Shown in pieces: positions 43,258 to 63,459 of a DNA stretch of 64,000 nucleotides (position 1 is the first letter of the stretch; each line of letters starts with the position of its first letter). Position numbers and translations under genes: made by a program. The notes beneath the pieces are model-generated. The model had not been told where the DNA came from and did no database searches. It saw only the letters and a list, made by a program, of their open reading frames with translations. Origin of the DNA: an uncultured Fuscovulum sp. (GTDB taxonomy: Bacteria; Pseudomonadota; Alphaproteobacteria; Rhodobacterales; Rhodobacteraceae); assembly GCA_964386345.1 (NCBI GenBank), contig CAYLSD010000019.1, positions 9,802-73,801 on the forward strand. Reading direction: 5' to 3'.

Positions 43258-43320
43258 GGGGATACCCCCGATTACCTGCCCGGACGCTATATCCAACGGC
43301 ATCGGGGGGTATATACCCCC
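43258..43320. promoter_or_regulatory. G/C-tract palindromes upstream of the C-N hydrolase operon, candidate operators
   Basis: GGGGATACCCC (43258-43268) and perfect GGGGGTATATACCCCC (43305-43320). Confidence 0.45.
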
Positions 43321-43334
43321 GGAGAGGTATCGCC

Positions 43335-45386: not shown

Positions 45387-45448
45387 GGCAAGCGGCCTTT
45401 TCACGGGTGGCTGGCGGCATCGTCGGGCAGGGCGCGGATTTCGTCAAA

Positions 45449-45478
45449 CACAAAATCGACACTGGTGTCGATTTTGTG
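45449..45478. promoter_or_regulatory. Candidate TetR operator in divergent stcD/tetR promoter
   Basis: CACAAAATCGACAC-TG-GTGTCGATTTTGTG, perfect 14-bp arms. Confidence 0.75.
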
Positions 45479-45523
45479 GGCTGTCTGGTTGCGGCGGGCG
45501 GGCAGGGGGCTTACCCTTGCCGC

Positions 45524-46162
45524 ATGGAAAGCACGGCGGAAGAGGCGGAGACGAAGGATCGCGGCTGGCGCGGCTCGGCCGCGCTGTGGCTGGACGGGGC
45601 CCATGCGCTGTTGATCGAAGGCGGCGTGGAGGCGGTGAAGATCGGCCCGCTGGCCGCCCGGCTCGGCCTGTCGCGGACCTCGTTCTACTGGCATTTCGCC
45701 GACCGCGAGGCGCTTCTGGCCGCGCTGGTCGCCCGCTGGCGCGAGACGAACACGCCCGCGCTGGTGGCACGGATCGACCGGCCCGCGGCGACGGTGACCG
45801 AGGCGGTTCTGGCGCTTTTCGACGCCTGGGTGGATGCGGACATGTTCGATTCGGCGGCGGAATTCGCCATGCGGACCTGGGCGCTGACCGATCCCGTGGT
45901 GGCCGCCGCGCTGGCCGGAGAGGATGAGGCGCGGATCGCCGCGCTGACCGGCCTTTTCCTGCGCCACGGCTATGCGGCGGATGAGGCGGACACCCGGGCG
46001 CGTACGGTCTATCTGACCCAGGTCGGCTATATCGCGCTGCGGTCGGAAGAGGATTTCGCGGCGCGGATGGCGCGGATCCCCTCCTATGCGCTGGTCTTCA
46101 CCGGGGTTGCCCCTTCGGCGGCGGAGGTGGCGGCCTTCCGGGCGCGCCACGCCCTTACGTAA
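45524..46162 (+). CDS. TetR/AcrR family regulator
   Basis: GGVEAVKI..LA.RLGLSRTSFYWHF helix-turn-helix. Confidence 0.9.
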   Translation: MESTAEEAETKDRGWRGSAALWLDGAHALLIEGGVEAVKIGPLAARLGLSRTSFYWHFADREALLAALVARWRETNTPALVARIDRPAATVTEAVLALFDAWVDADMFDSAAEFAMRTWALTDPVVAAALAGEDEARIAALTGLFLRHGYAADEADTRARTVYLTQVGYIALRSEEDFAARMARIPSYALVFTGVAPSAAEVAAFRARHALT

Positions 46163-46571
46163 GACGCGCCAGCAGCCGGGCCAGAAGCGCGGCCTCCGCC
46201 TCGTCCAGCGGTTCCAGCGTCAGGGCGCTGATCTCCAGCGCCAGCGGCGCCAGCCGGGCGAACAGCGCCCGGCCTTCGGGTGTCAGCGCCACGATCCGCC
46301 GGCGGCGGTCGGCCGGGTCCGGCGTGGCGGCGACAAGCCCCTGCCGCACCAGCCGGTCGACCACGCCCTTGACCGTGACCGCATCCATCGCGGTTTCCCG
46401 GCCGAGCGCGTTCTGCGACTGCGGCCCCAGTTCGGCCAGCCGGGCCAGCAGGGCGAATTGCGTGGTGGTCACGTCCGGGATGCCGCGGGCAAAGATCGCC
46501 AGATGCCGCTGCGTCACCCGGCGCAGCAGAAAGCCGATCTGCTCGTCCAGCACATAGCCCGTATGGTCCAT
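46155..46571 (-). CDS. MarR family regulator (NicR-like), divergent from the hydroxylase operon
   Basis: EQIGFLLRR..QRH, SQNALGRETAMD..TVKGVVDRL, DPADRRR...LTPEG. Confidence 0.9.
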   Translation of the reverse strand: MDHTGYVLDEQIGFLLRRVTQRHLAIFARGIPDVTTTQFALLARLAELGPQSQNALGRETAMDAVTVKGVVDRLVRQGLVAATPDPADRRRRIVALTPEGRALFARLAPLALEISALTLEPLDEAEAALLARLLARLT

Positions 46572-46592
46572 GCGCCCGAATAGACCCTACGC
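46559..46592. repeat. Repeat family A doublet overlapping the marR start codon
   Basis: CCGTATGG-T-CCATGCGC + CCGAATAG-A-CCCTACGC; 29/34 identical to 23822-23855. Confidence 0.7.
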
Positions 46593-46647
46593 TTTCCGTC
46601 CGCGCAAGGGACGGCTGTTGACAGCCGGGGCCGAGGCTTGGCACCTT

Positions 46648-46661
46648 GTTCGTATACGAAC
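46648..46661. promoter_or_regulatory. Candidate MarR operator
   Basis: Perfect palindrome GTTCGTATACGAAC 15 bp before the hydroxylase ATG; second palindrome GGCTGT-TG-ACAGCC (46613-46626) contains TTGACA. Confidence 0.6.
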
Positions 46662-46676
46662 GACAGGGCTAAGCGG

Positions 46677-47495
46677 ATGGATTACCTTCGCCCCGACAGC
46701 CTTTCCCAGGCGCTGGCCGCAGTTGCGGGCGGGGCGCGGGTGCTGGCGGGCGGGACGGATCTCTACCCCGGGGCGGGGCCGCGGCTGAAAGGGCCGGTGG
46801 TGGATCTTGCCGCCCTGCCGGGGATGGCGGGGATAAAGGCGGGGCCGGATGGCCTGCGGATCGGCGCCTGCACCACCTGGACCGCGATTGCCGAGGCAGA
46901 CCTGCCCCCCGCCGCGCGGGCGCTGCAACAGGCGGCGCTTCAGGTCGGCGGGCGGCAGGTGCAGAACGCGGGCACCATCGCCGGGAATATCTGCAACGCC
47001 TCGCCCGCCGCCGACGGCGTGCCGCCGCTTCTGGCCATAGGGGCCGGGGTGGAACTGGCCTCTGCCGCCGGGACGCGGCGGCTGGCGCTGGAGGATTTCC
47101 TGCAAGGCCCGCGCCGGGTGGAGCTACGGCCCGGCGAACTGGTCTCGGCGGTGCTGCTGCCGCGGGCGGGGCTGGCCGGGCGCTCGGCCTTCGCGAAACT
47201 GGGCGCGCGGGCGCATCTGGTGATCTCCATCGCCTCGGCCGCCGTGCGGCTGGAGGTCTCGGGCAGGCGGATCGAGGCGGCTGCGGTGGCGGTCGGCGCC
47301 TGCTCTCCGGTCCCGCGGCGGCTGCCTGCGGTGGAGGCGGCGCTTTGCGGCCCGATGCAGGGGGCCGCAGCCCGGGTCGATCCGGCGGCGGTGGCGGCGG
47401 CCCTGTCGCCCATCGGCGATGTGCGGGCGACGGCGGATTACCGGCTGCGGGCAGCGGCGGAACTGGTCCGCCGGGCGGTGGAGGACGCGCTGTGA
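46677..47495 (+). CDS. Molybdenum hydroxylase FAD subunit (XdhA/CoxM/NdhF-like)
   Basis: LAGGTDL, QVQNAGTIAGNICNASPAAD, DVRATADYR. Confidence 0.92.
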   Translation: MDYLRPDSLSQALAAVAGGARVLAGGTDLYPGAGPRLKGPVVDLAALPGMAGIKAGPDGLRIGACTTWTAIAEADLPPAARALQQAALQVGGRQVQNAGTIAGNICNASPAADGVPPLLAIGAGVELASAAGTRRLALEDFLQGPRRVELRPGELVSAVLLPRAGLAGRSAFAKLGARAHLVISIASAAVRLEVSGRRIEAAAVAVGACSPVPRRLPAVEAALCGPMQGAAARVDPAAVAAALSPIGDVRATADYRLRAAAELVRRAVEDAL

Positions 47496-50179
47496 TCCGG
47501 TTCCGGCTGAACGGCGAGGAGGTCGCGGCGGAGGCCCCGCCCACCGAACGGTTGAGCCTTACCCTTCGGGAAAGGCTGGGGAAAACCGGCACCAAGGTCG
47601 GCTGCGACGCGGGCGATTGCGGCGCCTGCACGGTGCTGGTGGACGGCTGGGCCACCTGCGCCTGCCTGACCCCGGCGGCGCGGGTCGAGGGCCGCGAGGT
47701 CACCACGGTTGAGGCGGAAACCCCCATCCTTGGCCGCCTGCGCGCCGCCTTCCTGGCCGAGGGCGCGGCGCAATGCGGCATCTGCACGCCGGGGATGCTG
47801 ATGGCGGCGGCCGAGCTTCTGGCGCATACACCCCGGCCGGACGAGGCCATGGTGCGGCAGGCCCTTGGGGGCGTCCTCTGCCGCTGCACCGGCTATGCGC
47901 GGATCGTCGCGGCGGTGGTCTCGGCGGGCCGGCCTGCGGCGGCGCATCCCGCCGCACCCGCCGCAGGGCAGGCGGTCGGCGCGGCCATGCCGCGGCTGGA
48001 CGGGGCGGCGAAGGTGGCGGGCGATCTGTTCGGCGACGATGTGGTGCCCCCCGGCGCGCTGGTGGTACGGGCCGTCCGCTCGCCGCATCCCCATGCCGCC
48101 TTCCGCTTCGGCGACCTGGCCGCCTATGCCGCCCGCCCGGGCGTGGCCGGGGTCTTCACCGCCGGGGACATTCCCGGCCGCAACGCCTTTTCCGTCATCC
48201 CGCCCTTCGCCGACCAGCCCGCCATCGCCACCTCTCCGGCCCGGTTCCGCGGCGAATGCGTGGCGCTGGTGGCGTTCGAGCCCGAGGCGGATTCCGGCCT
48301 GGCCGATTTCCCGGTGGACTGGCAGCCCTTGCCCGCGCTGGACAGCCCGGAGGCGGCCGAGGCCCCCGGCGCGGCGCTTGTCCACCCGGGCCGCCCCGGC
48401 AACCTGCTGATCGAGGGCAGGGTGAGGCGCGGCGACGTGGCGGCGGCGCTGGCCGCCTCGGCCCATGTGGTGGAGGGCAGCTTCACCACCGCCTTCGTCG
48501 AGCACGCCTATATCGAACCCGAGGCAGGCGCCGCATGGCTTGAGGGCGACAGGCTGGTCATCCGCGCCTGCACCCAGGCCCCCGGCATGGACCGCGAGGA
48601 AACCGCCGCGATCCTCGGCCTGCCGCTGGACAGGCTGCGCATCATCCCCTCTGCCGTCGGCGGCGGTTTCGGCTCGAAGCTGGATGTCTCCTTGCAGCCG
48701 CTGATCGGGCTGGTCGCCCTGCGCACAGGCCGCCCGGCGCGGATGACTTATTCGCGCCCCGAAAGCATGGCCTCCACCACCAAGCGCCACCCGGCCGGGA
48801 TGCAGGGCCGGATCGGTTGCGACGCCCGGGGCCGGATCACCGGCATGGAGTTCGAGGGCAGCTTCGACACCGGCGCCTATTCCAGCTGGGGCCCGACGGT
48901 GGCGAACCGGGTGCCGGTGCATGTCTCCGGCCCCTATCTGACGCCCGCGATCCATGCCCGGGCGCGGGCGGTGCACACCAACGGCCCGGTCTCCGGCGCC
49001 TTCCGCGGCTTCGGCGTGCCGCAGGCGGCGCTGTGGCAGGAAACGCTTTACGACCGGCTGGCGGAGAAGGCCGGGATCGACCGGCTGGAGTTCCGTATCC
49101 TGAACGCGCTGCGCGACGGGGATGTCTCGCCCACCGGCAACAGCCTGCAGGCGGTGGGGATCGCGCCGTGCCTTGAAGCGCTGCGGCCCGCATGGATGCG
49201 CGCGCTGGACTGGGCGGCTTCGGCCAGGGGCCGCGGCATCGGCGTCGCCTCCTGCTGGTATGGCTGCGGCAATACCGCCTTGCCCAACCCTTCCACCATC
49301 CGCATCGGCATCACCCGCGGGGGAGAGGCCGTATTGCATCAGGGCGCGACCGATATCGGGCAGGGATCGAACACCGTCATCCCGCAGATCGCCGCCGATG
49401 CCCTTGGCGTGCCGGTCCATGCCCTGCGGCTGGTCGGCCCCGACACGGCGCTGACGCCGGATGCGGGCAAGACCTCGGCCTCCCGCCAGACCTATGTCAC
49501 CGGCCGGGCGGCGCAGAAGGCGGCGGGCAGTTTGCGGGCGGCGATCCTGCGTATGGCCAATGCGGGCGAAGGGTCCATACTGGCACTGTCCCCGGGCCGG
49601 ATCACCGTGACCGAAGGGACCATACGGCGCGAGATCGAGCTTGAGGCGATGCCCCCCGACAGCCGCGGCTATGCGCTGTCGGCCGAGGAAAGCTACGACC
49701 CGCCGACCCGGCCGCTGGATGCCGACGGGCAGGGCGTGCCCTATGCCGTCTATGGCTACGGCGCGCAGATGGTGGAACTGGAGGTGGACCCGGCCCTCGG
49801 CACCGTCCGCCTGCACCGGATCACCGCGGCGCATGACCTCGGCCGGGTGATCAACCCGCTGCTCGCCCGCGGCCAGATCGAGGGCGGCATCGCCCAGGGA
49901 CTCGGCATGGCGCTGATGGAGGAATACCTGCCTGGCCGCACCGACAACCTGCACGACTACCTGATCCCGACCACCGGCGACATGCCGGCCATCGACCCGA
50001 TCCTGATCGAGGTGCCGGACCCCGAAGGCCCTTTCGGCGCCAAGGGCCTCGGCGAACACGTCCTGATCCCCACCGCCCCGGCGATCCTGAACGCCATCCG
50101 CCACGCTACCGGAGCCGCGATCACCCGCACCCCCGCGCTGCCCCACCGCATCCTCGCGGCGATGGAGGGCAGGGAATGA
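47492..50179 (+). CDS. Molybdenum hydroxylase, fused 2x[2Fe-2S] + molybdopterin subunit (nicotinate/xanthine dehydrogenase family)
   Basis: KVGCDAGDCGAC, QCGICTPG, LCRCTGY, VGGGFGSK, GAFRGFG, AKGLGE; GTGA overlap. Confidence 0.93.
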   Translation: MIRFRLNGEEVAAEAPPTERLSLTLRERLGKTGTKVGCDAGDCGACTVLVDGWATCACLTPAARVEGREVTTVEAETPILGRLRAAFLAEGAAQCGICTPGMLMAAAELLAHTPRPDEAMVRQALGGVLCRCTGYARIVAAVVSAGRPAAAHPAAPAAGQAVGAAMPRLDGAAKVAGDLFGDDVVPPGALVVRAVRSPHPHAAFRFGDLAAYAARPGVAGVFTAGDIPGRNAFSVIPPFADQPAIATSPARFRGECVALVAFEPEADSGLADFPVDWQPLPALDSPEAAEAPGAALVHPGRPGNLLIEGRVRRGDVAAALAASAHVVEGSFTTAFVEHAYIEPEAGAAWLEGDRLVIRACTQAPGMDREETAAILGLPLDRLRIIPSAVGGGFGSKLDVSLQPLIGLVALRTGRPARMTYSRPESMASTTKRHPAGMQGRIGCDARGRITGMEFEGSFDTGAYSSWGPTVANRVPVHVSGPYLTPAIHARARAVHTNGPVSGAFRGFGVPQAALWQETLYDRLAEKAGIDRLEFRILNALRDGDVSPTGNSLQAVGIAPCLEALRPAWMRALDWAASARGRGIGVASCWYGCGNTALPNPSTIRIGITRGGEAVLHQGATDIGQGSNTVIPQIAADALGVPVHALRLVGPDTALTPDAGKTSASRQTYVTGRAAQKAAGSLRAAILRMANAGEGSILALSPGRITVTEGTIRREIELEAMPPDSRGYALSAEESYDPPTRPLDADGQGVPYAVYGYGAQMVELEVDPALGTVRLHRITAAHDLGRVINPLLARGQIEGGIAQGLGMALMEEYLPGRTDNLHDYLIPTTGDMPAIDPILIEVPDPEGPFGAKGLGEHVLIPTAPAILNAIRHATGAAITRTPALPHRILAAMEGRE
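49549..49627. repeat. Repeat family A units inside the Mo subunit gene
   Basis: Units at 49549 and 49566 (17-bp register) and 49611 (CCGAAGGG-A-CCATACGG). Confidence 0.6.
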
Positions 50180-50190
50180 AAGGTTCTTTT

Positions 50191-50240
50191 CCCCTTCATC
50201 TTGGTCCAAATACTCCGGGGGCGCGGGGGCTGGCCCCCGC
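50191..50240 (+). repeat. Intergenic repeat family B, copy 2
   Basis: CCCCTTCATCTTGGTCCAAATACTCCGGGGGCGCGGGGGCTGGCCCCCGC. Confidence 0.8.
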
Positions 50241-50267
50241 TCCGACCTTGGCCGCAGGACTTGCCCC

Positions 50268-51704
50268 ATGACCGAAGCCCCCGAGAAGATCCGCTGCGAT
50301 GCCTGCCCGGTGATGTGCTACATCGCCCCCGGCCAGACCGGCGCCTGCGACCGTTATGCCAATGAGGCAGGCCGGATCGTGCGGACCGATCCGGTGGTGA
50401 TGCTGTCCCATGCCGTCGGGACCGGCGGGCGCGTGGTGCCCTTCGCGGCGCGGGATTGGGATGGCAGCCCGGTGCCCGCGGATGCTTTCGTCACCGGCAT
50501 CGGCGCGGGAACCACCTACCCGGACTACAAGCCCGCGCCCTTCATCGTGTCGTCCCGTATGGGCGATACGGACATGGTGACCGTGGTGACCGAGGCGATC
50601 TTTTCCTATTGCGGGGTGAAGGTGAAGATCGACACCGACCGCTTCCTCGGCCCCGAGGGGGCGGTGGTCCGGGTGACGGGCGAGGCCGTCGGCCATGTCA
50701 CCACCGCCGAATACGGCAGCCAGATGCTGTCCCTCGGCGGCGTCCATCACCTGACCGGCGGCTCGAAGGCCGGGGGCCGCGTCACCTGCGCCGCGCTGCT
50801 GAGCCTGTGCAACGGCGAGGCGGTGGAGATGGAGATCGAGGGCGGCTCGGCCGTGACCGTGCAGGCCGGACGGCCTCCGGTTGTGGATGGCGTGCAGGAG
50901 CGGCGGATGCGGGTCGGCTGCGGCTCGGCCACCATCGGCATGTTCGCGGTGCAATGGCAGGGGCTGGTGGACGAGGTGGTGGTGGTGGACGACCACATCA
51001 CCGGCGTCGTTTCGGAACATCAGGCCGGGAAGGTGCTGGACTGGCAGCCGACCGGGATCAGGATCAAGGGGCATCGGTCGACCCCGGGGCGGTATTTCCG
51101 GGTGTCGGAGCCCGGACAGGGCTGGGGCGGCACGCGGCTGACCGATCCGCTGGAGATCCTGGGCGACTGGCAGGAGAAGAAGGGGGCAAGGCCGGGGCTG
51201 CGGCTGCTGATGGTGTCCACCACCGGCGAGGAATACGCCTATTACGTGCTGGACCGGGACCTGCGCCCGGTGCCGCAGGAGTTGCCGCAGAACCTGAAGA
51301 AGACCGTGCAACTGATTGACGAGAATTGCGAACCCTCGCTTTGCACCGTGCTGTTCATGGGCGGGGCCGGGGGATCGCTGCGGGCGGGCGTCACCCGGAA
51401 TCCGGTGCGGTTGACAAGGTCCGTGCAGGGCGGCGTGACCCGGCTGACCTGCGGCGGGGCGGAAACCTTCGTCTGGCCCGGCGGCGGCATCACCTTCATG
51501 GTCGACGTGACCCGGCTGCCGAAGGGCGCCTTCGGTTATGTGCCGACGCCCGCGCTGGTGGCTCCGCTGGAATTCACCCTGCCGCGCGAGGATTATCTGG
51601 CGATGGGCGGGCATGAGGCGGCGGTCCGGGACATCGGGCAGGTGATGGAGGAAGGCGGGGAATACCCGACTGCCGCGAGGATCGAACCGTGGGGCGGGCG
51701 GTGA
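50268..51704 (+). CDS. hnr: 6-hydroxynicotinate reductase-like Fe-S flavoprotein
   Basis: RCDACPVMC...GACDRY, GAGTTYPDYKPAPFIVS, FSYCGVKVKIDTDR, MRVGCGSATIG, GGAGGSLRAGVT, WPGGGITFMVD; downstream of Mo-hydroxylase. Confidence 0.8.
   Translation: MTEAPEKIRCDACPVMCYIAPGQTGACDRYANEAGRIVRTDPVVMLSHAVGTGGRVVPFAARDWDGSPVPADAFVTGIGAGTTYPDYKPAPFIVSSRMGDTDMVTVVTEAIFSYCGVKVKIDTDRFLGPEGAVVRVTGEAVGHVTTAEYGSQMLSLGGVHHLTGGSKAGGRVTCAALLSLCNGEAVEMEIEGGSAVTVQAGRPPVVDGVQERRMRVGCGSATIGMFAVQWQGLVDEVVVVDDHITGVVSEHQAGKVLDWQPTGIRIKGHRSTPGRYFRVSEPGQGWGGTRLTDPLEILGDWQEKKGARPGLRLLMVSTTGEEYAYYVLDRDLRPVPQELPQNLKKTVQLIDENCEPSLCTVLFMGGAGGSLRAGVTRNPVRLTRSVQGGVTRLTCGGAETFVWPGGGITFMVDVTRLPKGAFGYVPTPALVAPLEFTLPREDYLAMGGHEAAVRDIGQVMEEGGEYPTAARIEPWGGR
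50555..50571. repeat. Repeat family A single unit inside hnr
   Basis: CCGTATGG-G-CGATACGG, 15/16 match to consensus. Confidence 0.6.
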
Positions 51705-51793
51705 GCGGCGCGTTCCATATCGCGCAGCCGCGCATCCGCGCGCGGCTGCAAGGGCCCGTCTCGCCTCTGGCCGTTCCGGCCAACCGGCTCGGG

Positions 51794-51830
51794 GCCTCCG
51801 GCGGGGATATTGGCGGTTCTGGAAGAGGGG
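51794..51830 (-). repeat. Intergenic repeat family B, degenerate copy 3
   Basis: GCCTCCGGCGGGGATATTGGCGGTTCTGGAAGAGGGG resembles the reverse complement of copy 1; preceded by a 10-bp-stem hairpin at 51724-51749. Confidence 0.45.
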
Positions 51831-51832
51831 CG

Positions 51833-52663
51833 GTGGCGGCGCTTTTGCCGGACGGGCGGCTGCATCTGCAACACGGGCCGATCGACATAGTCGCGGAAGC
51901 CTGGGGAGAGGCCGTGGCCGTCCGCGAAGGATATGCCCGGGCGGCGGGGCGCTTCGCTTCCGTGCTTCAGGAACTGGCGGCGGAACTGCCTGCGTTGCGG
52001 GCTGAGGATGCGCCCTTGCGGGGAGCCATCGCGCAACGGATGGCCGCTGCCGTGGCCCCGTTCCGGCCCGCCTTCATCACGCCCATGGCCGCCGTGGCGG
52101 GTGCGGTGGCGGAGGAGGTGCTGGCGGCGCTGGTCGGGCCGGGGATCGCCCGCGCCTGTGTCAACAACGGCGGCGACATCGCGCTGTTCCTTGCGCCGGG
52201 GCAGCGGCTGTCCTGCGCGCTGGCGGCCTCGGGCGGTATGGACCATACCACCGTATGGGCCGAGGCGCCGGTGCGCGGCATCGCCACCTCGGGCTGGCGG
52301 GGGCGCAGTTTCTCTTTCGGTGTCGCCGATGCGGTCACGGTGCTGGCGCGGACCGCGGCGATGGCGGATGCGGCGGCGACGATGGTGGCGAATGCGGTGG
52401 ATCTGCCCGGCCACCCGGGCATCCGCCGGCGCCCGGCCTGCGAGATGCAGGCGGATACCGATCTGGGCGCGCGGCTGGTGACGGTGGCGGTTCCCGCTCT
52501 TTCGCCGGAAGACCGCGGCGCAGCGCTGGCGGCGGGGCTGGCGGCGGCCGAGGGCTTCCGGGCGCGCGGATTGATTGAAGCTGCCGCGATTTACCTGCAA
52601 GGTGAGCGGCGGGTGACCGGGGGCCTTGCCCTTTCCGCGCCGGCAAGGGGAGAAGATGACTGA
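51833..52663 (+). CDS. UPF0280 family protein (ApbE-like fold)
   Basis: LPDGRLHLQHGPID, FITPMAAVAGAVA, NNGGDIA, GIATSGWRGRSFS.GVADAVTV; start GTG 51833 (RBS) or 51701. Confidence 0.85.
   Translation: MAALLPDGRLHLQHGPIDIVAEAWGEAVAVREGYARAAGRFASVLQELAAELPALRAEDAPLRGAIAQRMAAAVAPFRPAFITPMAAVAGAVAEEVLAALVGPGIARACVNNGGDIALFLAPGQRLSCALAASGGMDHTTVWAEAPVRGIATSGWRGRSFSFGVADAVTVLARTAAMADAAATMVANAVDLPGHPGIRRRPACEMQADTDLGARLVTVAVPALSPEDRGAALAAGLAAAEGFRARGLIEAAAIYLQGERRVTGGLALSAPARGEDD
52234..52267. repeat. Repeat family A doublet inside the UPF0280 gene
   Basis: CGGTATGG-A-CCATACCA then at +17 CCGTATGG-G-CCGAGGCG. Confidence 0.6.
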
Positions 52664-53237
52664 TTTCACCGTCCGCAAGATCGTGACCCAGATCGAGGAA
52701 ATCCGCCATGAGGGCGGGCCCGCCGCCGTGCCGCCTCCGGTCCGCGGCGCGATCTATGCGATCTGCGCCAATCCCTTCGCCGGGCGCTACGAGCCGGATC
52801 TGCAACCCGCGATGGAGAGGCTGAAGCCCCTTGCGCTGGACCTGACCGACCGGCTGGTCGCCGCGCTTGGGGGCCGGAACGGCATCGACGCCTATGGCAA
52901 GGGTGCCATCGTCGGCGAGGCGGGGGAAAGCGAGCATGGCGCGATCTGGCATGTCTCGGGCGGCTACGGCATGCGCGAGCGGCTGGGGGAATGCCGTGCC
53001 ATCGTGCCGAGCGCGATGAAGGTCGGCGGCATGGGGGCGGCGCTGGACATCCCGCTTGGCCACCTGAACGCGGCCTATGTCCGGTCGCGCTTCGACGTGA
53101 TCACCGTCGCCTGCGCCGACGGGCCGCGCGCGGGCGAGGTGCTGTTCGCCCTGGCCATGGCGCGGGGCGGGCGGGTGCATTCCCGGATGGGCGGGCTGGA
53201 GATCCATCAGGTGAAGGGGGAGGACGGGCTGCGATGA
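52656..53237 (+). CDS. DUF1185 (amino acid synthesis family) protein
   Basis: VRKIVTQIEEI.HEGG, NPFAGRY, YGKGAIVG..GE.EH, DIPLGH...AYVRS, GGRVHSR. Confidence 0.82.
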   Translation: MTDFTVRKIVTQIEEIRHEGGPAAVPPPVRGAIYAICANPFAGRYEPDLQPAMERLKPLALDLTDRLVAALGGRNGIDAYGKGAIVGEAGESEHGAIWHVSGGYGMRERLGECRAIVPSAMKVGGMGAALDIPLGHLNAAYVRSRFDVITVACADGPRAGEVLFALAMARGGRVHSRMGGLEIHQVKGEDGLR

Positions 53238-54592: not shown

Positions 54593-54677
54593 AACGGGTG
54601 GACAGCGCCGCGCCGCGGCGACACATTCGACGAGAGGTCCCCGGCAGCGGGGCCAGCCAGCAAGGGGAGAGACCCAG

Positions 54678-55955
54678 ATGACCACGACTTCGCTTTTCAC
54701 GCCGTCCCGCCGCCGGGTTCTGCAGGGCATGGGGGCCGGTCTGGCCACGGCGGCAATCCCGGGGCATGTCTGGGGGCAGGCCGCGCCGCTGAAGATCGGG
54801 TTCCAGTTGCACCGCACCGGCATCGGCGCGGCCTATGGCCGCTGGTATGAGCGCACGACCACCGCCGCCGCCGCCGCGATCAACGCCGCGGGCGGGATCG
54901 GCGGGCGGCAGGTGGAGATCCTTTACGAGGACGATGCCACCGACCCCAAGCGCGGCGCCGAAGTGGTGGAAAAGCTGGCGGGCCCCTCGGGCTGCGACCT
55001 GATCATGGGGACGCTGTTTTCCCATGTCGTGATGGGCGCCGCGCCGCGGGCGGGGGAGTTGAAGATCCCCTATCTCGTCTGCTCCGAGGGCTATCACGTC
55101 GCCTCCGGCGCGCTGAACCGCTGGGTGCTGCAACCCGGCATCACCGATGTGCGGGCGCAGATCTCCACCATGGCGCCCTGGGTCGCCTCGACCCTTGGCA
55201 AGAAGGTGACGATGGTCTTCCCGGACTATGCCTTCGGCCACGACCACCGCGATTTCTTCACCAGTGCCATTGCCGCGCAGGGCGGCGAGGTGATCAGGCA
55301 GATCGCCATCCCGCCGACCGAAACCAGCTTCACCCGCTATTTCCCGCAGATCCCGGCCGAGACCGAGGTGCTGTATCACGTCATGGTCGGCCCCGCCGTC
55401 CTGACCTTCGTCAAGGAGCTGGGAGAGTTCTACGGCACCGGCGCGAAGCCCGCGCTCTTCGGCTTCATCGACTCGCTGGAGGCGGTGGATACGGCCTCGC
55501 CGGGGCTGGAGTTCCTTGAGGGCAGCCATTTCTGGGAAGGCCATTGCCGGGTGAAGCCCGCCGACGCGGGCGAGGCCGAGACCGCCTATCGCGCCGCGGT
55601 GGGGGTGGACGACAACGGCGCAAGCGTCAGCGACGCCAAGGATGTCTCGACCTATGCGCATATGTTCTCTTGCTGGGAGACGCTGCATTTCATCAAGCAG
55701 GCGGTAGAGGCTTCGGGCTATGCCGGCCCCGCCGACCGCCAGAAGCTGGTCGAGGCGATGGAGGCGGTGACCGACCTGCCCGAGGGGCCGGAACGCCCGC
55801 AGGGGCCGATGCGCTTCGACGGCAAGAAGCACCAGGCCTTCGGGGTGCAGAACATCTCGAAGGTCGAAGGCGGCAAGCTGGTGCGGGTGCACCAGACCAC
55901 GATCGAGGAAGGGCTTTACGAGAACGACACCGACTATACGGCGATGTCGTTCTAA
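54678..55955 (+). CDS. ABC substrate-binding protein, LivK/periplasmic binding protein type 1, Tat-exported
   Basis: SRRRVLQG twin-arginine signal, INAAGGIGGRQVEILYEDD, PDYAFG. Confidence 0.9.
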   Translation: MTTTSLFTPSRRRVLQGMGAGLATAAIPGHVWGQAAPLKIGFQLHRTGIGAAYGRWYERTTTAAAAAINAAGGIGGRQVEILYEDDATDPKRGAEVVEKLAGPSGCDLIMGTLFSHVVMGAAPRAGELKIPYLVCSEGYHVASGALNRWVLQPGITDVRAQISTMAPWVASTLGKKVTMVFPDYAFGHDHRDFFTSAIAAQGGEVIRQIAIPPTETSFTRYFPQIPAETEVLYHVMVGPAVLTFVKELGEFYGTGAKPALFGFIDSLEAVDTASPGLEFLEGSHFWEGHCRVKPADAGEAETAYRAAVGVDDNGASVSDAKDVSTYAHMFSCWETLHFIKQAVEASGYAGPADRQKLVEAMEAVTDLPEGPERPQGPMRFDGKKHQAFGVQNISKVEGGKLVRVHQTTIEEGLYENDTDYTAMSF

Positions 55956-55962
55956 GGGCCGC

Positions 55963-55980
55963 GGCGGGGGCGACCCCGCC
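55963..55980 (+). other. Intercistronic hairpin after the binding-protein gene
   Basis: GGCGGGG-GCGA-CCCCGCC, GNRA loop, typical mRNA-stabilising position. Confidence 0.5.
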
Positions 55981-55994
55981 CCACGCATCCCCGC

Positions 55995-56873
55995 ATGGCC
56001 TTCGGTCCCTTCCTGCTTCTCGCCCTGATGGAGGGCATGGTCACCGCCGCGGTGCTGTCGCTGGCGGCGGTGGGCCTGTCGCTGGTCTTCGGCGTCATGC
56101 GGGTGGTCAATGTCGCGCATGGCGAGTTCTTCATGCTGGGCGCGGTGATCGCCTGGTTCGTGGCGGGGCTGGTGCCCGGCCCGGCATGGATGGCCTTCCT
56201 TGCCGCGCTGGTGATCGCGCCGCTGATCGTCGGCGCGTTGGCGGCGGCGGTCGACGGGCTGGTGCTGAAGCGGCTGAACTACGACCCCGAGGCCACCATC
56301 GTCGCCACCATCGGCGTGATGTACATGCTGCAACAGGCGGCGCTGAGCTTTTACGGCCCCGACGCCCGCCCGGTGGCCGCCCCCTTCACCTGGCGCATCC
56401 AGCTGCCGTGGTTCGGCACCTCCGGCTACAAGTTCTTCGTCGTCCTTGCCGCCATCCTCGTCCTGCTGGCGGTCTGGCTGGTGATGACACGCACGAAGGC
56501 CGGGCTGGTGATGCGGGCGACGCAGGTGGACCGTGATGTCGCCCGCGCCTTCGGGATAAATGTCGACCGGGTCTACATGGGCACCTTCGCGCTTGGCGCG
56601 GGGCTGGCGGCGATGGGGGCGGTGCTCTACGTGCCGATCAGCCAGGCGCATTACCTGATGGGGCACGACCCGCTGCTTTTGTCCTTCATCGTGGTGATCA
56701 TCGGCGGCCTCGGCAGCTTGCGCGGCACGCTGGTCGCGGCGCTGGTGATCGGCCTGTCGGACGGGGTGATCAGCATGTTCTTCTCGCCCACGCTGGCGAA
56801 GATCCTCGCCACGCTGCTGGTCGCCATGGTGCTGGTGTTCCGCCCGCAGGGCCTGTTCGGGGCGAAGGCATGA
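55995..56873 (+). CDS. Branched-chain-type ABC permease (LivH-like)
   Basis: GLSLVFGVMRVVNVAHGEFFMLG, FIVVIIGGLGS, VFRPQGLFG. Confidence 0.92.
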   Translation: MAFGPFLLLALMEGMVTAAVLSLAAVGLSLVFGVMRVVNVAHGEFFMLGAVIAWFVAGLVPGPAWMAFLAALVIAPLIVGALAAAVDGLVLKRLNYDPEATIVATIGVMYMLQQAALSFYGPDARPVAAPFTWRIQLPWFGTSGYKFFVVLAAILVLLAVWLVMTRTKAGLVMRATQVDRDVARAFGINVDRVYMGTFALGAGLAAMGAVLYVPISQAHYLMGHDPLLLSFIVVIIGGLGSLRGTLVAALVIGLSDGVISMFFSPTLAKILATLLVAMVLVFRPQGLFGAKA

Positions 56874-57814
56874 GTCGCGGGGCGCGGACATGGGCGCTGC
56901 ATCTGGCCGTGCTGGCGGCGCTGCTGGCGGCGGGGCTGCTGCTGCCCGCCTATCATGCGACCAACCTTGCGCGCATCCTGGTGCTGGCCACCTTCGCCGC
57001 CGGATACAACCTTGCCTTCGGCTATACCGGGCTTCTGAGCCTTGGCCATGCGATGTTCTTCGCCGCCGGGATGTATGCCGCCGGGCTGCCCGCCTGGCAC
57101 TGGGGCTGGCCCGCCGCGCCCGCGCTGCTGGCCGGGGCGGCGGCGGGCGGGCTGATGGCGCTGGCCGTGGGCGCGCTGGCGCTGCGGACGGCGGGCGTCT
57201 CCTTCATGATCGTCACGCTGATGTTCGCGCAGGCCTTCGCGCTGACCATCCTTTATTTCAACACCTGGACCGGCGGGGACGAGGGCTTCGTGATCCCCGA
57301 CGCCTCGCGCCGCCTGTTCGGCGTCAGCCTCTCCGCCGACGTTCCGCGCTTCCTGACGGCATGGGGCCTGTTCGCCATTGGCCTGATCCTGTCGCTGGCG
57401 CTGGTCCGCTCGCGCTTCGGCCGGATCATGGTGGCGCTGCGCGAGAACGAGGAACGGGCGAGGATGCTGGGCATCAACCCCTTCGCCGCCAAGCTGAAGG
57501 TGCTGGCGGTCTCGGGCGCCTATTCCGGCGCGGCGGGGGCGGCCTATGCCATCCTGTTCGGCTATGCGGGCGGCACCTTCGCCGGCATCCAGTATTCCAT
57601 CCTGCCGATGCTCTACGTCCTTCTGGGCGGGGCGGGCACCGTTCTTGGCGCCGTCCTCGGCGCGGGGCTGATGTTCTACCTGACCGAACTGGCCTCTTCC
57701 GTCACCTCGGCCTGGCTGTTCCTGGTGGGGCTGGCGCTGGTGGTGCTGGTCCTCTTCGCGCCGAAGGGCATCCTCGGCTGGGTCCGGGCAAGGCTGTGGA
57801 GGGATCTGCCATGA
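56870..57814 (+). CDS. Branched-chain-type ABC permease (LivM-like)
   Basis: YNLAFGYTGLLSLGHAMFF, TGGDEG, ALRENEERA..LG, FAPKGILG. Confidence 0.92.
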   Translation: MSRGARTWALHLAVLAALLAAGLLLPAYHATNLARILVLATFAAGYNLAFGYTGLLSLGHAMFFAAGMYAAGLPAWHWGWPAAPALLAGAAAGGLMALAVGALALRTAGVSFMIVTLMFAQAFALTILYFNTWTGGDEGFVIPDASRRLFGVSLSADVPRFLTAWGLFAIGLILSLALVRSRFGRIMVALRENEERARMLGINPFAAKLKVLAVSGAYSGAAGAAYAILFGYAGGTFAGIQYSILPMLYVLLGGAGTVLGAVLGAGLMFYLTELASSVTSAWLFLVGLALVVLVLFAPKGILGWVRARLWRDLP

Positions 57815-58510
57815 GCCTTCTCTCCGCCCGCGGCCTGACCCGGCACTTCGGCGGCATCCATGCCGTCGACGGGGTGGATTTCGATCTGGAGGCCGGAGAG
57901 ATCCATGCCCTGATCGGCCCCAACGGCGCGGGCAAGACGACGCTGGTCTCGCTGCTTTCGGGCCGCATCGCGGCGCAGGCGGGCAGGATCACGCTGGCGG
58001 GAGAGGACATCACCCGCCTTCCCGCCCATGCCCGCGTCCGGCGCGGTCTGGCCTATACCTTCCAGATCACCAGCATCTTCCCGGGGCTTTCGGTCTTCGA
58101 CAATGTGGCGCTGGCGGTGCAGGGCGGCGCGGCCCCGGCCCGCGACCTGCCCGCCGCCGTCGGGGCCAGCCTCGCCCGGGTCGGCATGACGGGGATGGAG
58201 GCACAGGCCGCGGGGACCCTGTCCTACGGCCACCAGCGGCTGCTGGAACTGGCGATGGGGCTGGCGCTGGCCCCCCGCGTGCTGATCCTGGACGAGCCGA
58301 CGCAGGGCCTTGCGGCGGGCGAGATCGAGGGATTCAAGGCGCTGGTCCGCGGGCTGGTCCCCGAGGTCTCGGTCCTGCTGATCGAGCACAACATGGAGGT
58401 GGTGATGGACCTTGCCCACCGCATCACCGTGATGAACTCCGGCCGGGTGCTGGCGCGCGGAACGCCTGCGGAAGTCCGGGCCGATGCGGCGGTGCAGGAG
58501 GCCTATCTCG

Positions 58511-58518
<8 letters not shown>
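57811..58518 (+). CDS. ABC ATP-binding protein (LivG-like)
   Basis: GPNGAGKTT, LSYGHQRLLE, LDEPTQG, IEHNM. Confidence 0.93.
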
Positions 58519-59206
<688 letters not shown>

Positions 59207-59207
59207 G

Positions 59208-61229
59208 ATGGCGGGGCTGGTGGCGGGCGTGGACGTGGGCGGCACCTTCACCGACCTCGTGGTCTTCGATCCGGCCTCGGGCGCGGTGCGGCTGGCCAAG
59301 GTGCCGACGACGCTGCCGAACCAGTCGGGCGGGGTGCTGGCGGCCTTCGATGCCGCGGGCACCGGTCTTGCCGCGCTGGACCTGATCGTCCACGGCACCA
59401 CCACCACCACCAATGCGGTGCTGGAGCGGCAGTTGGCGAGGACCGGCCTGATCACCACCGCAGGTTTCCGCGACGTGCTGGAGCTTGGCCGCCGCACCCG
59501 TCCGCAGGCCTATGGCATGTCGGGACGGTTCACGCCGATCATTCCCCGCGACCTGCGGCTTGAGGTGCCGGAACGGATGGACGCCCGGGGCAGGGTGGTC
59601 ACGCCGCTGGACGGGGATGCCGTGGCCCGGGCGATCCGCGACCTGCTGGCCAGGGGCTGCGAGGCGCTGGTGATCCATTTCCTGCACGCCTACGCCAACC
59701 CGGCGCATGAGCTGCGCGCCGCCGAAATCGCCGCCCGCCTCTGGCCGAACGGCTATGTCACCACCGGGCATTCCCTGCTGTCCGAGGCGCGGGAATACGA
59801 GCGCGGGGTGACGGCGGCGGTGAATGCCAGTGTGCAGCCGGTGCTGGAGCGCTATGTCTCGCGCCTGGCCGGAGAGTTGAAGGCGCGGGGATATGCCCGT
59901 GATCTGCTGGTGATGAACGGCAACGGCGGCATGGTCAGCGCGGCCCATGTCGCGCGCGAGGCGGTGAAGACGGTGATGTCCGGCCCGGCCTCGGGCGTGA
60001 TGGCGGCGGTGGCCACCGGGCGGCGGGCGGGCTTCCCGAACCTGCTGACCTATGACATGGGCGGCACCTCGACCGATGTGGCGATGATCCGCGGCGGCGT
60101 GGCCCCGGTCTCGAACGAGATCGAGGTGGAATATGCCATGCCGATCCATGTGCCGATGGTGGATGTGCGCACCGTGGGGGCAGGGGGCGGGTCGATCGCC
60201 CGGGTCGATGCCGGCGGCATGCTGCGCGTCGGGCCGGAAAGCGCCGGCTCCGACCCCGGGCCGGTCTGCTATGGCCGGGGCGGCACGCGGGCGACGCTGT
60301 CGGACGCCAACCTGATCCTCGGGCGGCTTCCGGCCAGCCGTTTCGGGGCGGCCGCCGGGGCGGCGCGGGCGGCGATGGAGGAACAGATCGCGCGGCCTCT
60401 GGGTCTGGGGGTGGAGGAGGCGGCGGAGGCGGTGGTGACCATCGCCAACACCCATATGGCCGGGGCGATCCGCATGGTTTCCATTTCCATGGGCGCCGAC
60501 CCGCGCGACTTCGCGCTGTTCGCCTTCGGCGGCGCCGGGCCGCTGCATGCCGTGGCGCTGGCGCGCGAGCTTGCGGTGCCGAAGGTTCTGGTCCCGGCGC
60601 GGCCCGGCATCACCAATGCGCTCGGCTGCGTGGTGGCCGACCTGCGGCATGATTTCGTCCGCACCCTGAACCGGCCGCTGGACGGGGTGGAGATGGCGGA
60701 GGTCCATGCCATCCTTGCCGCGCAGGAGGCCGAGGGCCGCCGCCTGATCGGCGAGGAGCGGATCGAGCTGCGCGACATGGCCGCCGGGTTTGCCGCCGAG
60801 ATGCAGTTCATCGGCCAGACCCATTTGCTGCGCGTGCCGCTGCCCTCGGCCACGCCCTCGCGCGAAGAGCTTCAGCGCCTGTTCGAGGCGGCCTATCACG
60901 CCCGCTTCCGGGTGGACCTGCCGGAGATCCGCGCCAATCTGGTGAACCTGACCACCAGCGTCACCGGCCGCCGGGCCGAGCCGGACCTGTCCCGCCTGAT
61001 CGACCCGGCAGGGCGCAAGGCGCTGGCCGAGCCGCAGGAGGTGCGACGGGTCTGGTTCGGCGGCTGGGTGGAAACCCCGGTCTACTGGCGCGACCACCTG
61101 CCGCTGGAGCTGGCGCTGGGGGGGCCGGCGATCGTCGAGCAGATGGACACGACCTTGGTGGTGGAGCCGGGGTGCCGGGTGACTTCGGATGCGGATGGAA
61201 ATCTGATTGTGCGGGTTTCGGGGGGCTAG
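59208..61229 (+). CDS. Hydantoinase/5-oxoprolinase family subunit A (ATP-binding)
   Basis: VDVGGTFTD, HGTTTTTNA, SGPASG, DMGGTSTDV, GAGGGS, FGGAGPLH. Confidence 0.93.
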   Translation: MAGLVAGVDVGGTFTDLVVFDPASGAVRLAKVPTTLPNQSGGVLAAFDAAGTGLAALDLIVHGTTTTTNAVLERQLARTGLITTAGFRDVLELGRRTRPQAYGMSGRFTPIIPRDLRLEVPERMDARGRVVTPLDGDAVARAIRDLLARGCEALVIHFLHAYANPAHELRAAEIAARLWPNGYVTTGHSLLSEAREYERGVTAAVNASVQPVLERYVSRLAGELKARGYARDLLVMNGNGGMVSAAHVAREAVKTVMSGPASGVMAAVATGRRAGFPNLLTYDMGGTSTDVAMIRGGVAPVSNEIEVEYAMPIHVPMVDVRTVGAGGGSIARVDAGGMLRVGPESAGSDPGPVCYGRGGTRATLSDANLILGRLPASRFGAAAGAARAAMEEQIARPLGLGVEEAAEAVVTIANTHMAGAIRMVSISMGADPRDFALFAFGGAGPLHAVALARELAVPKVLVPARPGITNALGCVVADLRHDFVRTLNRPLDGVEMAEVHAILAAQEAEGRRLIGEERIELRDMAAGFAAEMQFIGQTHLLRVPLPSATPSREELQRLFEAAYHARFRVDLPEIRANLVNLTTSVTGRRAEPDLSRLIDPAGRKALAEPQEVRRVWFGGWVETPVYWRDHLPLELALGGPAIVEQMDTTLVVEPGCRVTSDADGNLIVRVSGG

Positions 61230-61265
61230 CGGACCCCCGTGGAGTATTTCCGTCAAGAGGAAGGG
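61221..61265 (-). repeat. Intergenic repeat family B, copy 4 (overlaps subunit A stop)
   Basis: Reverse complement CCCTTCCTCTTGACGGAAATACTCCACGGGGGTCCGCTAGCCCCC aligns with copies 1 and 2. Confidence 0.65.
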
Positions 61266-61272
61266 CAGGGCG

Positions 61273-62949
61273 ATGGTCGATCCGGTGACTTTGGCGGTGA
61301 TCCAGGCGGGGTTGCAGCAGGTCTGCGACGAGATGGACCTGACGTTTTCGCGCGCGGCCTTCTCGCCGGTGATCGCCGAGGCCGACGACCGTTCGGACGG
61401 CATCTATTCGGCTGAGGACGGCTCCTTGATCGCGCAGGGATCGAAGGGCCTGCCGGTCTTCGTCGGCGTGATGCAGTTCTCCACCCGCACGCTGGTGGAG
61501 CGGATCGCGGCGGGCGTCACCGCGGCGCCTGAGCCGGGGGATATCTACATCGTCAACGATCCTTACCTCGGCGGCACCCATCTGATGGATGTGCGCTTCG
61601 CCATGCCGTTCTGGCGGGACGGGCGGATCTGGTGCTGGCTGTCGAACACCGGGCATTGGCCGGACACCGGCGGCATGGTGCCGGGCGGGTTTTCCGCCAG
61701 CGCGATCAGCGCCGAGCAGGAGGGGCTGCGGCTGCCGCCGGTGAAGCTGTTCAAGAAGGGGGTGCTGGACGAGGAGATCTGGGCGATCATCCGGTCCAAC
61801 ATCCGGGTTTCCGAACAGCGGATCGGCGATGTGAAGGCGCAGGCCTCGGCGCTGATGGTGGGGGCAGAGCGGCTGGCGGCGCTGATGGACCGCTACGGCG
61901 ATGCCACGGTGGCGGAGGCGGTGGCGCGGATGCGCGATCTGGCCGCGCGGCAGATGCGGGCGATGATCGGGCTGATCCCGGAGGGGCGCTACGAGGCGCG
62001 GGCCTTCATCGATTCCGATGGCGTGGTGAACGAGCCGCTGACCATCGCGCTGGCGGTGACGCGGGCGGGCGAGGGGCTGGTCTTCGATTTCGCCGGTTCC
62101 TCGCCGCCCTGCACGGGGCCGATGAACTCGGTCCGGGCGACGACGCTGTCCTCGGTCTATCTGGCGATGCGCCATATCTTCCCCGATGTGCCGATCAGCG
62201 CGGGCGCCTTCGAGCCGCTGGAGGTGACGGGGATCGAGGGCACCTTCCTGGACGCCCGCTACCCCCGCCCGGTCTCGGGCTGCGCGGCCGAGGTCAGCCA
62301 GCGCATCGCGGAAGCCGTCTTCGCGGCGCTGGTGCAGGCGATCCCCGACCGGGTGACGGCGGCGCCCGCCGGGACCAGCGGCAACTTCGGGCTGGGGGGC
62401 ACGGACCCGGAGACCGGGGCGGGCTATGTGATGTATCAGATCTCTGGCGGCGGCTATGGCGGGTTCCGGGGCGGCGACGGCATCGCCAACGGCTGTTCCA
62501 CCATCGGCATCTCCAAGGCGCCGCCGGTCGAGATCATGGAGCAGAAATTCCCCGTCCTCTACCGCCGCTATGCGCTGCACGAGGGCAGCGGCGGGGCCGG
62601 GGAATGGCGCGGCGGCTTCGGGCTGGACTACGAGATCGAACTGCTGCGGGGCGCGGCGCGGGCCTCTTTCGTGATGGACCACGGGCGGACCGGGCCGCAG
62701 GGCGCGCTTGGCGGCGGCGAGGGGGCGGTGAACCGGGTGGAGATCACCCGCGGCGGGCAGGTGATGGTGCCCGAACACCTGTCGAAGGCGCAGGACATCG
62801 CGCTGGCGCCGGGCGACCGGGTGCGGGTGCGCACGCCCGGCGGCGGCGGCTACGGCGATCCGGCGCGGCGCGATCCGGCGGCGGTGGCCGAGGATGTGCG
62901 GCTGGGGCGCTATACGGCGGAAGAGGCGGCGCGGCTGTGGCCGGGATGA
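61273..62949 (+). CDS. Hydantoinase B / oxoprolinase family subunit
   Basis: AFSPVIAEADDRSDG, NDPYLGGTHLMD, GHWPDTGG, PVEIME, TPGGGGYG. Confidence 0.93.
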   Translation: MVDPVTLAVIQAGLQQVCDEMDLTFSRAAFSPVIAEADDRSDGIYSAEDGSLIAQGSKGLPVFVGVMQFSTRTLVERIAAGVTAAPEPGDIYIVNDPYLGGTHLMDVRFAMPFWRDGRIWCWLSNTGHWPDTGGMVPGGFSASAISAEQEGLRLPPVKLFKKGVLDEEIWAIIRSNIRVSEQRIGDVKAQASALMVGAERLAALMDRYGDATVAEAVARMRDLAARQMRAMIGLIPEGRYEARAFIDSDGVVNEPLTIALAVTRAGEGLVFDFAGSSPPCTGPMNSVRATTLSSVYLAMRHIFPDVPISAGAFEPLEVTGIEGTFLDARYPRPVSGCAAEVSQRIAEAVFAALVQAIPDRVTAAPAGTSGNFGLGGTDPETGAGYVMYQISGGGYGGFRGGDGIANGCSTIGISKAPPVEIMEQKFPVLYRRYALHEGSGGAGEWRGGFGLDYEIELLRGAARASFVMDHGRTGPQGALGGGEGAVNRVEITRGGQVMVPEHLSKAQDIALAPGDRVRVRTPGGGGYGDPARRDPAAVAEDVRLGRYTAEEAARLWPG

Positions 62950-62971: not shown

Positions 62972-63364
62972 CTAGCCCTTTGCCGCCCGCAACCGCGGAT
63001 GGATGGCATTGGTCTTCCAGCTGAGCGCGGGATCGTTCTCCACCACATCCAGCGACAGGGCGAAATGCGGCTCGGCCAGAAGGGCGGCGAAATGCGTCTC
63101 CGCCGCCGTCATCACCGCCGCGCCGAGGCGTTTCTTCTCTTCCGCCGTCCGGCCTGCGCCGATCCGCAGCAGCAGGGCGGCGAAGGCGTTTTCCGGCAAG
63201 ATGTCGGCCACGGCGTAATGCGGGCAGGGCAGGGCGCGGACGCGCACCGCGCCTTCCTCGAAGAGGCCGGTCGCCAGCAGCGCCTCGCGCAGCCGCAGGC
63301 AAAGGCCGGGCAGGTCGCCCGCGGTTTCCAGATTGGCCGAATATTCGATGGTCAGATGCGGCAT
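62972..63364 (-). CDS. hpaF: 5-carboxymethyl-2-hydroxymuconate isomerase family (Pro-1 tautomerase)
   Basis: MPHLTIEYSANL, GAVRVRA, IGAGRT.E.K, N.IH.RL. Confidence 0.85.
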   Translation of the reverse strand: MPHLTIEYSANLETAGDLPGLCLRLREALLATGLFEEGAVRVRALPCPHYAVADILPENAFAALLLRIGAGRTAEEKKRLGAAVMTAAETHFAALLAEPHFALSLDVVENDPALSWKTNAIHPRLRAAKG

Positions 63365-63459
63365 TCCGGCCCTCCTGTCGCCGCACAGAAAGCCGGGCCG
63401 CGGCGGAAAGGTCAACCGCCGGCTTGCCAAGCCGGCCCCTGCGGTGCAGGACTGGACCC

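Follow-up and report, generated by a model that had tools for sequence, protein, structure and literature searches.

A predicted ATP-dependent lactamase pair as candidate replacement for enamidase in a probable alphaproteobacterial nicotinate operon

Introduction

How is the ring of a reduced nicotinate opened in a bacterium that has no enamidase? The question is raised by a gene cluster of an uncultured Fuscovulum sp., located on a stretch of 64,000 nucleotides (positions 9,802 to 73,801 of contig CAYLSD010000019.1, assembly GCA_964386345.1) that was analysed as a whole and is called the window in the following. In the reductive nicotinate pathway, 6-hydroxynicotinate reductase (Hnr) produces the cyclic enamide 1,4,5,6-tetrahydro-6-oxonicotinate (THON), and enamidase opens its ring. 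Enamidase is a metal-dependent enzyme of the amidohydrolase superfamily that needs no ATP, and to our knowledge it is the only known THON-opening enzyme; its solved structure is PDB 2VUN. Work by Alhapel et al. from 2006 reportedly showed that purified enamidase alone turns THON into 2-formylglutarate and ammonia.

The window carries hnr together with its companion genes and a pair of hydantoinase/oxoprolinase-type genes, hyuA and hyuB, in place of an enamidase gene. The best reading of our data is that HyuAB is a non-orthologous replacement for the enamidase of Eubacterium barkeri and of Bradyrhizobium-type clusters. We put the probability at roughly 70% that HyuAB acts as an ATP-dependent THON lactamase, within a 13-gene, MarR-controlled operon for nicotinate uptake and reductive ring-opening. 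The reductive nicotinate pathway as such is known; the ATP-dependent pair in enamidase's place appears to be new. The full-text literature that was searched, whose coverage excludes many subscription papers, yielded no publication that connects genes of the hyuAB, hydantoinase or oxoprolinase kind with nicotinate or THON.

Results

The window has a G+C content of 70% and belongs to a Paracoccaceae genome with Rhodobacter, Tabrizicola and Fuscovulum as relatives. The completeness of this genome is 100%; the contig measures 74 kb and ends 206 nt past the window. Domain searches (Pfam/NCBIfam) recovered a co-directional run of 13 genes on the plus strand (46638-62949), preceded by a divergent regulator gene:

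46155-46571, minus strand: marR, divergent MarR-family regulator (Pfam MarR_2/MarR)
46638-47495, plus strand: FAD subunit of an XDH-family molybdenum (Mo) hydroxylase (Pfam FAD_binding_5 and CO_deh_flav_C); start probably ATG 46677
47492-50179, plus strand: fused 2Fe-2S and molybdopterin subunit (Pfam Fer2, Fer2_2, Ald_Xan_dh_C, MoCoBD_1/2); GTG start
50268-51704, plus strand: Hnr orthologue, 478 amino acids (no Pfam model; comparison with E. barkeri Hnr)
51689-52663, plus strand: UPF0280 protein (NCBIfam NF003322, 355 bits against a cut-off of 290); start GTG 51689 or 51701
52656-53237, plus strand: DUF1185/AA_synth protein of the "amino acid synthesis" family (Pfam PF06684, 211 bits)
53234-54592, plus strand: multi-pass membrane protein, 452 amino acids (frame found by translation)
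54678-55955, plus strand: Liv-type periplasmic binding protein of an ABC importer (Pfam Peripla_BP_6)
55995-56873 and 56870-57814, plus strand: two ABC permease genes (Pfam BPD_transp_2 in both)
57811-58518 and 58511/58484-59206, plus strand: two ABC ATPase genes (Pfam ABC_tran, BCA_ABC_TP_C)
59208-61229, plus strand: HyuA, predicted ATP-binding subunit (Pfam Hydant_A_N, Hydantoinase_A and Hydant_A_C with 289, 169 and 28 bits, all above the cut-offs)
61273-62949, plus strand: HyuB, predicted metal-dependent hydrolytic subunit (Pfam Hydantoinase_B, 521 bits, above the cut-off)

Every gene that an earlier note on this DNA had listed is thus present, in the order given there. The note had let the run extend from 46155 to 62949; the end holds, but the start has to be moved to 46638/46677 as marR lies on the minus strand. 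It had also stated that the run contains neither a metal-dependent amidohydrolase nor an aldehyde dehydrogenase, and neither was found among the 13 genes. Neighbouring genes in the run overlap by up to 16 nt or are separated by no more than 88 nt, which leaves no space for a further gene. The Mo-subunit gene overlaps the FAD-subunit gene by 4 nt, and hyuA starts 1 nt past the end of the second ATPase gene. Inside the run no promoter-like sites were found and a single, weak terminator-like site, i.e. fewer than given by chance. From this layout we infer that the 13 genes are co-transcribed as one MarR-controlled operon; most related loci likewise have a marR gene next to their hnr core, in differing positions. 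The run stops at hyuB because a convergent gene (62972-63364, minus strand) for a 5-carboxymethyl-2-hydroxymuconate isomerase (CHMI/HpaF) comes next.

Is enamidase encoded elsewhere in the genome? The enzyme is readily recognised: the amidohydrolase adjoining hnr on a Comamonadaceae plasmid (L103) matches 2VUN with E = 2e-111. Using this plasmid protein and the E. barkeri sequence as tblastn queries, the genome-wide search that the note had proposed returned no orthologue in the complete Fuscovulum genome; the best hit (E = 1.6e-4) covers some 90 residues of a generic amidohydrolase. Amidohydrolase domains occur in 19 regions of this genome. Nor was any enamidase found within 10 kb of hnr among 80 related loci.

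The note had further predicted that enamidase and hydantoinase A/B exclude each other among hnr genomes, and our survey bears this out almost perfectly. A first sample comprised 400 other alphaproteobacterial genomes, chosen so as to cover the class evenly, 63 of them hnr-positive and 337 hnr-less; a second sample added 17 further hnr genomes, redundant at the genus level, so that 80 other hnr genomes (79 alphaproteobacterial) were compared in total. Enamidase without HyuB is found in 31 of these and an orthologue of the window's HyuB without enamidase in 47, while two genomes carry both and none lacks both. The corresponding counts (enamidase only, HyuB only, both, neither) are 25, 38, 0 and 0 in the first sample and 6, 9, 2 and 0 in the second. 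First-sample enamidases (n=25) are 66-75% identical to the plasmid enamidase and, where enamidase and hnr share a contig, lie no more than 15 kb from hnr in 17 of 18 cases. The Bradyrhizobium-like genomes of the survey have enamidase near hnr. First-sample HyuB orthologues (n=38) are 64-75% identical to HyuB of the window, and 18 of 27 on the same contig as hnr lie within 15 kb of it. These numbers suggest that the HyuAB form is the majority type among the sampled hnr-carrying Alphaproteobacteria (approximately 60%).

At an identity threshold of 64%, HyuB is present in 38 of the 63 hnr-positive genomes of the first sample and in 1 of the 337 hnr-less ones. The single exception (L190, G247:C27:32000-46265) is a hyuB-hyuA-marR-DUF1185-UPF0280 cluster that is cut inside UPF0280 by the contig end, precisely where hnr would follow, and is an assembly artefact. 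Mapping the type of ring opener on a maximum-likelihood tree of Hnr, for which translation frames were chosen by similarity, requires at least 11 changes, at least five of them forced by well-supported branches, and opposite-type sister pairs occur within single GTDB families. Repeated exchange on a conserved core, with every genome keeping one opener, points to two analogous solutions for one and the same step.

Both subunits carry what a lactamase of this type would need. With the motif patterns of ASKHA ATP-binding proteins (DxGGTxxD, DxGGT, GxxPGP) subunit A shows DVGGTFTD, DMGGT and GSDPGP, and these, together with a conserved Lys, align to CapA, the corresponding subunit of the caprolactamase CapAB. 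HyuB residues D39/H103/D106/H128 align to D41/H99/D102/H124 of CapB and are invariant in 12 orthologues; mutation of these Asp-His-Asp-His metal ligands inactivates CapB (PMC8453981). The substrate pocket is a different matter. All 12 named hydrophobic pocket residues of CapB are replaced in HyuB, 11 of the 12 replacements are invariant in the 12 orthologues, and seven are polar (E, S, T, Q, T, S) or Gly. HyuAB scores 372 and 253 bits against the CapAB PDB chains, and the genome holds four further HyuAB-like pairs that are only 28-39% identical to the pair in the operon. The operon pair is best described as a predicted ATP-dependent lactamase of the hydantoinase/oxoprolinase type, far from every characterised member; members of this family do open six-membered lactams with ATP (PMC11033972; PMC8453981).

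Other assignments of HyuAB were tried and rejected. As a caprolactamase equivalog the pair falls short, with 483 (A) and 302 (B) bits against cut-offs of 1000 in NCBIfam NF050156/NF050157 and with all 12 pocket residues changed. A carboxylase role (acetone or acetophenone) is contradicted by the lack of a third subunit gene and by Asp as first metal ligand, which is Glu in acetone carboxylase; the Apc models give 294 and 122 bits against cut-offs of 1500. A housekeeping 5-oxoprolinase would not be confined to hnr genomes, as this orthogroup is.

The connection to nicotinate comes from the genes around HyuAB. Hnr is 41-42% identical to E. barkeri Hnr over 431-453 residues, an alignment of 64 Hnr sequences, that of E. 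barkeri among them, shows conservation of its N-terminal motif C10/C13/C17/C27 and of C218 and C354, and close relatives of the protein carry the public name 6-hydroxynicotinate reductase. The E. barkeri nic locus (L104), which was retrieved with the enamidase sequence from the 2VUN alignment, holds Hnr, UPF0280, NdhFSLM, enamidase and DUF1185. Its NdhF is 32% identical to the FAD subunit of the window, and NdhS/L/M are 35-41% identical to the fused 2Fe-2S/Mo subunit. There, the UPF0280 homologue immediately follows hnr, and the DUF1185 homologue immediately follows enamidase (L104:11209-11769). In all, 22 enamidase loci were compared (21 of Bacillota/Clostridia type and one from a deltaproteobacterial metagenome-assembled genome). 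The same core is present in most of those that are long enough, and HyuAB is absent from all 22. Since the core is common to E. barkeri and the other enamidase loci, UPF0280 and DUF1185 would be ancestral members of the nicotinate set, and the ring opener remains as the sole component in which the set of the window differs from that of the enamidase loci.

A proteobacterial nicotinate cluster has been described from Azorhizobium caulinodans ORS571, Bradyrhizobium and strain SG-6C, in which nicotinate is degraded via THON (PMC3511419). Within the Mesorhizobium loti cluster we found a nicotinamidase/pyrazinamidase gene (L062:~5400-6010, minus strand; NF008623, 213 bits, above the cut-off), and on a Neorhizobium plasmid (L102:2719-22425) NicAB-type nicotinate hydroxylase genes are joined to hnr-UPF0280-DUF1185-hyuAB. 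The hydroxylase is likewise exchangeable among clusters, as seen in the Neorhizobium plasmid and in Comamonadaceae.

At least four different arrangements connect HyuAB with the hnr core. It stands at the operon end in the window, in Fuscovulum and in many Paracoccaceae, follows straight after DUF1185 in others (L017, L041, L024, L102), is divergent or convergent to the core in a third group (L052, L056, L064), and in Sagittula stellata is translationally coupled to the genes of the Mo-hydroxylase. On the plasmid of S. stellata E-37 (L191:5531-19902) the FAD subunit, Mo subunit, hyuA and hyuB genes form one operon with 4-nt overlaps among the last three. This operon is divergent from fpr-hnr-UPF0280 with two DUF1185 genes and the gene for a Rieske oxygenase alpha subunit.

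Several observations concern individual members of these clusters. DUF1185 accompanies the ring-opening gene: it stands after enamidase in E. barkeri, and two copies lie by an enamidase-like gene and a MarR gene in two Mesorhizobium-like genomes (L188:7956-10300; L189:8261-10656), a pattern suggesting that DUF1185 acts at ring opening or just after. In the M. loti cluster, the genes for the nicotinamidase and for a 526-aa membrane transporter separate the ABC genes from those of the hydroxylase. In the Neorhizobium plasmid, no XDH-type FAD/Mo genes are annotated beside hnr, and the enamidase-type cluster of the Comamonadaceae is similar in this respect.

The Liv-type importer of the window comprises five genes (binding protein, two permeases, two ATPases), and its binding protein accompanies the hnr core in related loci. 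The membrane protein at 53234-54592 has no Pfam or NCBIfam match, is labelled "hypothetical protein" in an identical Fuscovulum operon, and is restricted to operons of the Paracoccaceae form, being missing from other HyuAB-type clusters. A mechanically called open reading frame at 53269-54681 was rejected as this protein because it is out of frame and its translation is rich in Arg, Ala and Gly. The protein diverges fast among relatives; identities of 33-74% came from a query in this wrong frame.

On the upstream side, two FadH/OYE genes (40408-42489 and 43335-45404, both minus strand) enclose a gene for a nitrilase-superfamily C-N hydrolase (42486-43250, minus strand) and are followed by a TetR gene (45407-46162, plus strand); it is possible that the FadH/OYE and nitrilase products act on a nicotinate-related compound. 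Past hyuB, the CHMI/HpaF gene is followed by a second MarR-type regulator, and the genes at 62972-63906 look like the beginning of a homoprotocatechuate module.

Discussion

The pathway that we propose takes its substrates and its ATP-dependent mechanism from family chemistry and genomic context. The ABC system would import nicotinate, and the XDH-family Mo-hydroxylase would hydroxylate it at C6 to 6-hydroxynicotinate, which Hnr, with UPF0280 and DUF1185 as its conserved companions, would reduce to THON. HyuA may then phosphorylate the lactim oxygen of THON using ATP, and the metal site of HyuB may hydrolyse the activated intermediate to 2-(aminomethylene)glutarate, an enamine that would in turn hydrolyse to 2-formylglutarate and ammonium. 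The opening of a six-membered lactam by the ATP-dependent pair had been put forward in the earlier note; the absence of enamidase and the phyletic complementarity of the two openers both lend it support.

Some of our data weigh against this reading and have to be set beside it. Enamidase opens THON without ATP, so that the ATP cost of HyuAB is unexplained. The aligned pocket residues of HyuB include no obvious cationic partner for a carboxylate. The best solved relative of the Mo subunit is the aldehyde oxidoreductase of Desulfovibrio (402 bits), not nicotinate dehydrogenase (237 and 205 bits against the L and M chains of 3HRD). As nicotinate dehydrogenase does not stand out as the closest relative of the Mo subunit, the first substrate rests on context and synteny, and the fused Mo-hydroxylase is presumed to be a nicotinate 6-hydroxylase. 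As regards the survey, 9 of the 27 HyuB genes that share a contig with hnr are separated from it by more than 15 kb, and two Mesorhizobium-like genomes carry HyuAB along with an enamidase-like gene; the latter is 60-62% identical and, together with two DUF1185 genes and a MarR gene, makes up a small cluster of its own at a distance from hnr. The 64% cut-off for HyuB orthology was set after the data had been seen, and homologues at 57-62% identity, a sister group, do occur in hnr-less genomes. Finally, the Fisher p-values for co-occurrence take no account of shared ancestry.

Which other scenarios could explain the locus? That the operon handles a different substituted pyridine had been considered as an alternative from the beginning and has become less likely. 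Here, another N-heterocycle (a different pyridine carboxylate or a pyridone) would be degraded and HyuAB would open its lactam, in line with a Mo subunit that resembles other XDH-family enzymes at least as much as nicotinate dehydrogenase and with an ABC binding protein that has no assigned ligand. However, Hnr is a clear orthologue of a characterised enzyme (42% identity to that of E. barkeri), the core is shared, orthologous clusters include nicotinamidase or NicAB, and the proteobacterial cluster is tied to nicotinate and THON catabolism in Azorhizobium and strain SG-6C (PMC3511419). We regard this scenario as unlikely. Equally one may ask whether the ring is opened by DUF1185, by UPF0280 or spontaneously, with HyuAB and enamidase both dispensable and serving, for example, to detoxify a lactam side-product. 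The position of DUF1185 immediately after enamidase in E. barkeri and its pairing with the enamidase-like gene in the hnr-less side clusters of two genomes would agree with this. Yet both DUF1185 and UPF0280 occur in both cluster types and so cannot account for the missing enamidase, and all 80 surveyed hnr genomes keep one of the two ring openers; purified enamidase, moreover, is said to convert THON on its own. This makes such a scenario quite improbable.

The ATP expenditure would be accounted for if the substrate were a saturated lactam. In such a branch after Hnr, an ene-reductase would reduce THON further to the delta-lactam 6-oxopiperidine-3-carboxylate, and HyuAB would convert this to 2-(aminomethyl)glutarate. 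Saturated delta-lactams are proven substrates of the hydantoinase/oxoprolinase family, and their hydrolysis needs ATP; two FadH/OYE-family Fe-S flavoenzymes and the nitrilase-superfamily hydrolase are encoded directly upstream (40408-45404), and homologues of the large flavoprotein are placed likewise in 24 of 80 related loci. The flavoenzymes could carry out the further reduction. If true, a stable ring that only an ATP-dependent lactamase can open would form part of a new way of assimilating the carbon and nitrogen of nicotinate. The OYE genes, however, lie on the opposite strand beside a TetR-family regulator gene, and most HyuAB-type clusters outside Paracoccaceae do not have them. HyuAB has no aminotransferase or amine dehydrogenase as a conserved partner, and its near-perfect either/or relation with enamidase speaks for an identical substrate and product. 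We therefore rate this branch as very improbable. The notion that HyuAB is an unrelated 5-oxoprolinase or hydantoinase merely neighbouring the operon can hardly be upheld: public databases do annotate such genes as N-methylhydantoinase or oxoprolinase and the genome does hold four further pairs, but the orthogroup's restriction to hnr genomes (38 of 63 versus 1 of 337), the linkage to hnr in several gene orders, the low identity (28-39%) to the genome's own paralogues and the start of hyuA 1 nt past the preceding operon gene all speak to the contrary.

A THON lactamase role of HyuAB can be set against the systems already known. The E. barkeri nic cluster likewise unites Mo-hydroxylase, Hnr (with the same Cys motif), UPF0280 and DUF1185. 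In contrast to it, the window has HyuAB and no enamidase, fuses the FeS, L and M subunits into one polypeptide where L and M are split in E. barkeri, adds an ABC importer, a MarR regulator and a membrane protein, and is without the genes of the later fermentation steps (hgd, hmd, mgm and others). The cluster of A. caulinodans ORS571 and Bradyrhizobium shares with it an aerobic alphaproteobacterial host (PMC3511419, Figure 4); it encodes the first three steps including enamidase (PMC3511419), whereas the window has HyuAB. CapAB of Pseudomonas jessenii (PDB 6YRA; PMC8453981) is likewise a two-subunit ATP-dependent lactamase with conserved ATP motifs and D-H-D-H site, but a distant relative, and the proposed substrate of the window's pair is a carboxylated six-membered enamide. 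OplAB of Pseudomonas putida provides the precedent for ATP-driven opening of a six-membered lactam, delta-valerolactam (PMC11033972); that lactam is unsubstituted and saturated and belongs to lysine/valerolactam metabolism, with no link to hnr. The opening of THON and the genomic niche beside hnr are what HyuAB would have in common with enamidase (2VUN), which has an unrelated fold and mechanism, is metal-dependent and uses no ATP.

Conclusions

If HyuAB opens THON, a hole in the pathway would be filled for the approximately 60% of sampled hnr-carrying Alphaproteobacteria that have no enamidase, among them relatives of Rhodobacter and Tabrizicola, marine roseobacters and Mesorhizobium-like rhizobia. 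Widespread "N-methylhydantoinase/5-oxoprolinase" annotations would have to be corrected, and ATP-dependent lactamases would gain a new class of natural substrate, the carboxylated six-membered enamide, of relevance to mild lactam hydrolysis. The finding also poses an energetic question, namely why many aerobes should pay ATP for a step that enamidase performs for free. The repeated exchange of ring openers on a conserved core would then be a clean case of non-orthologous gene displacement.

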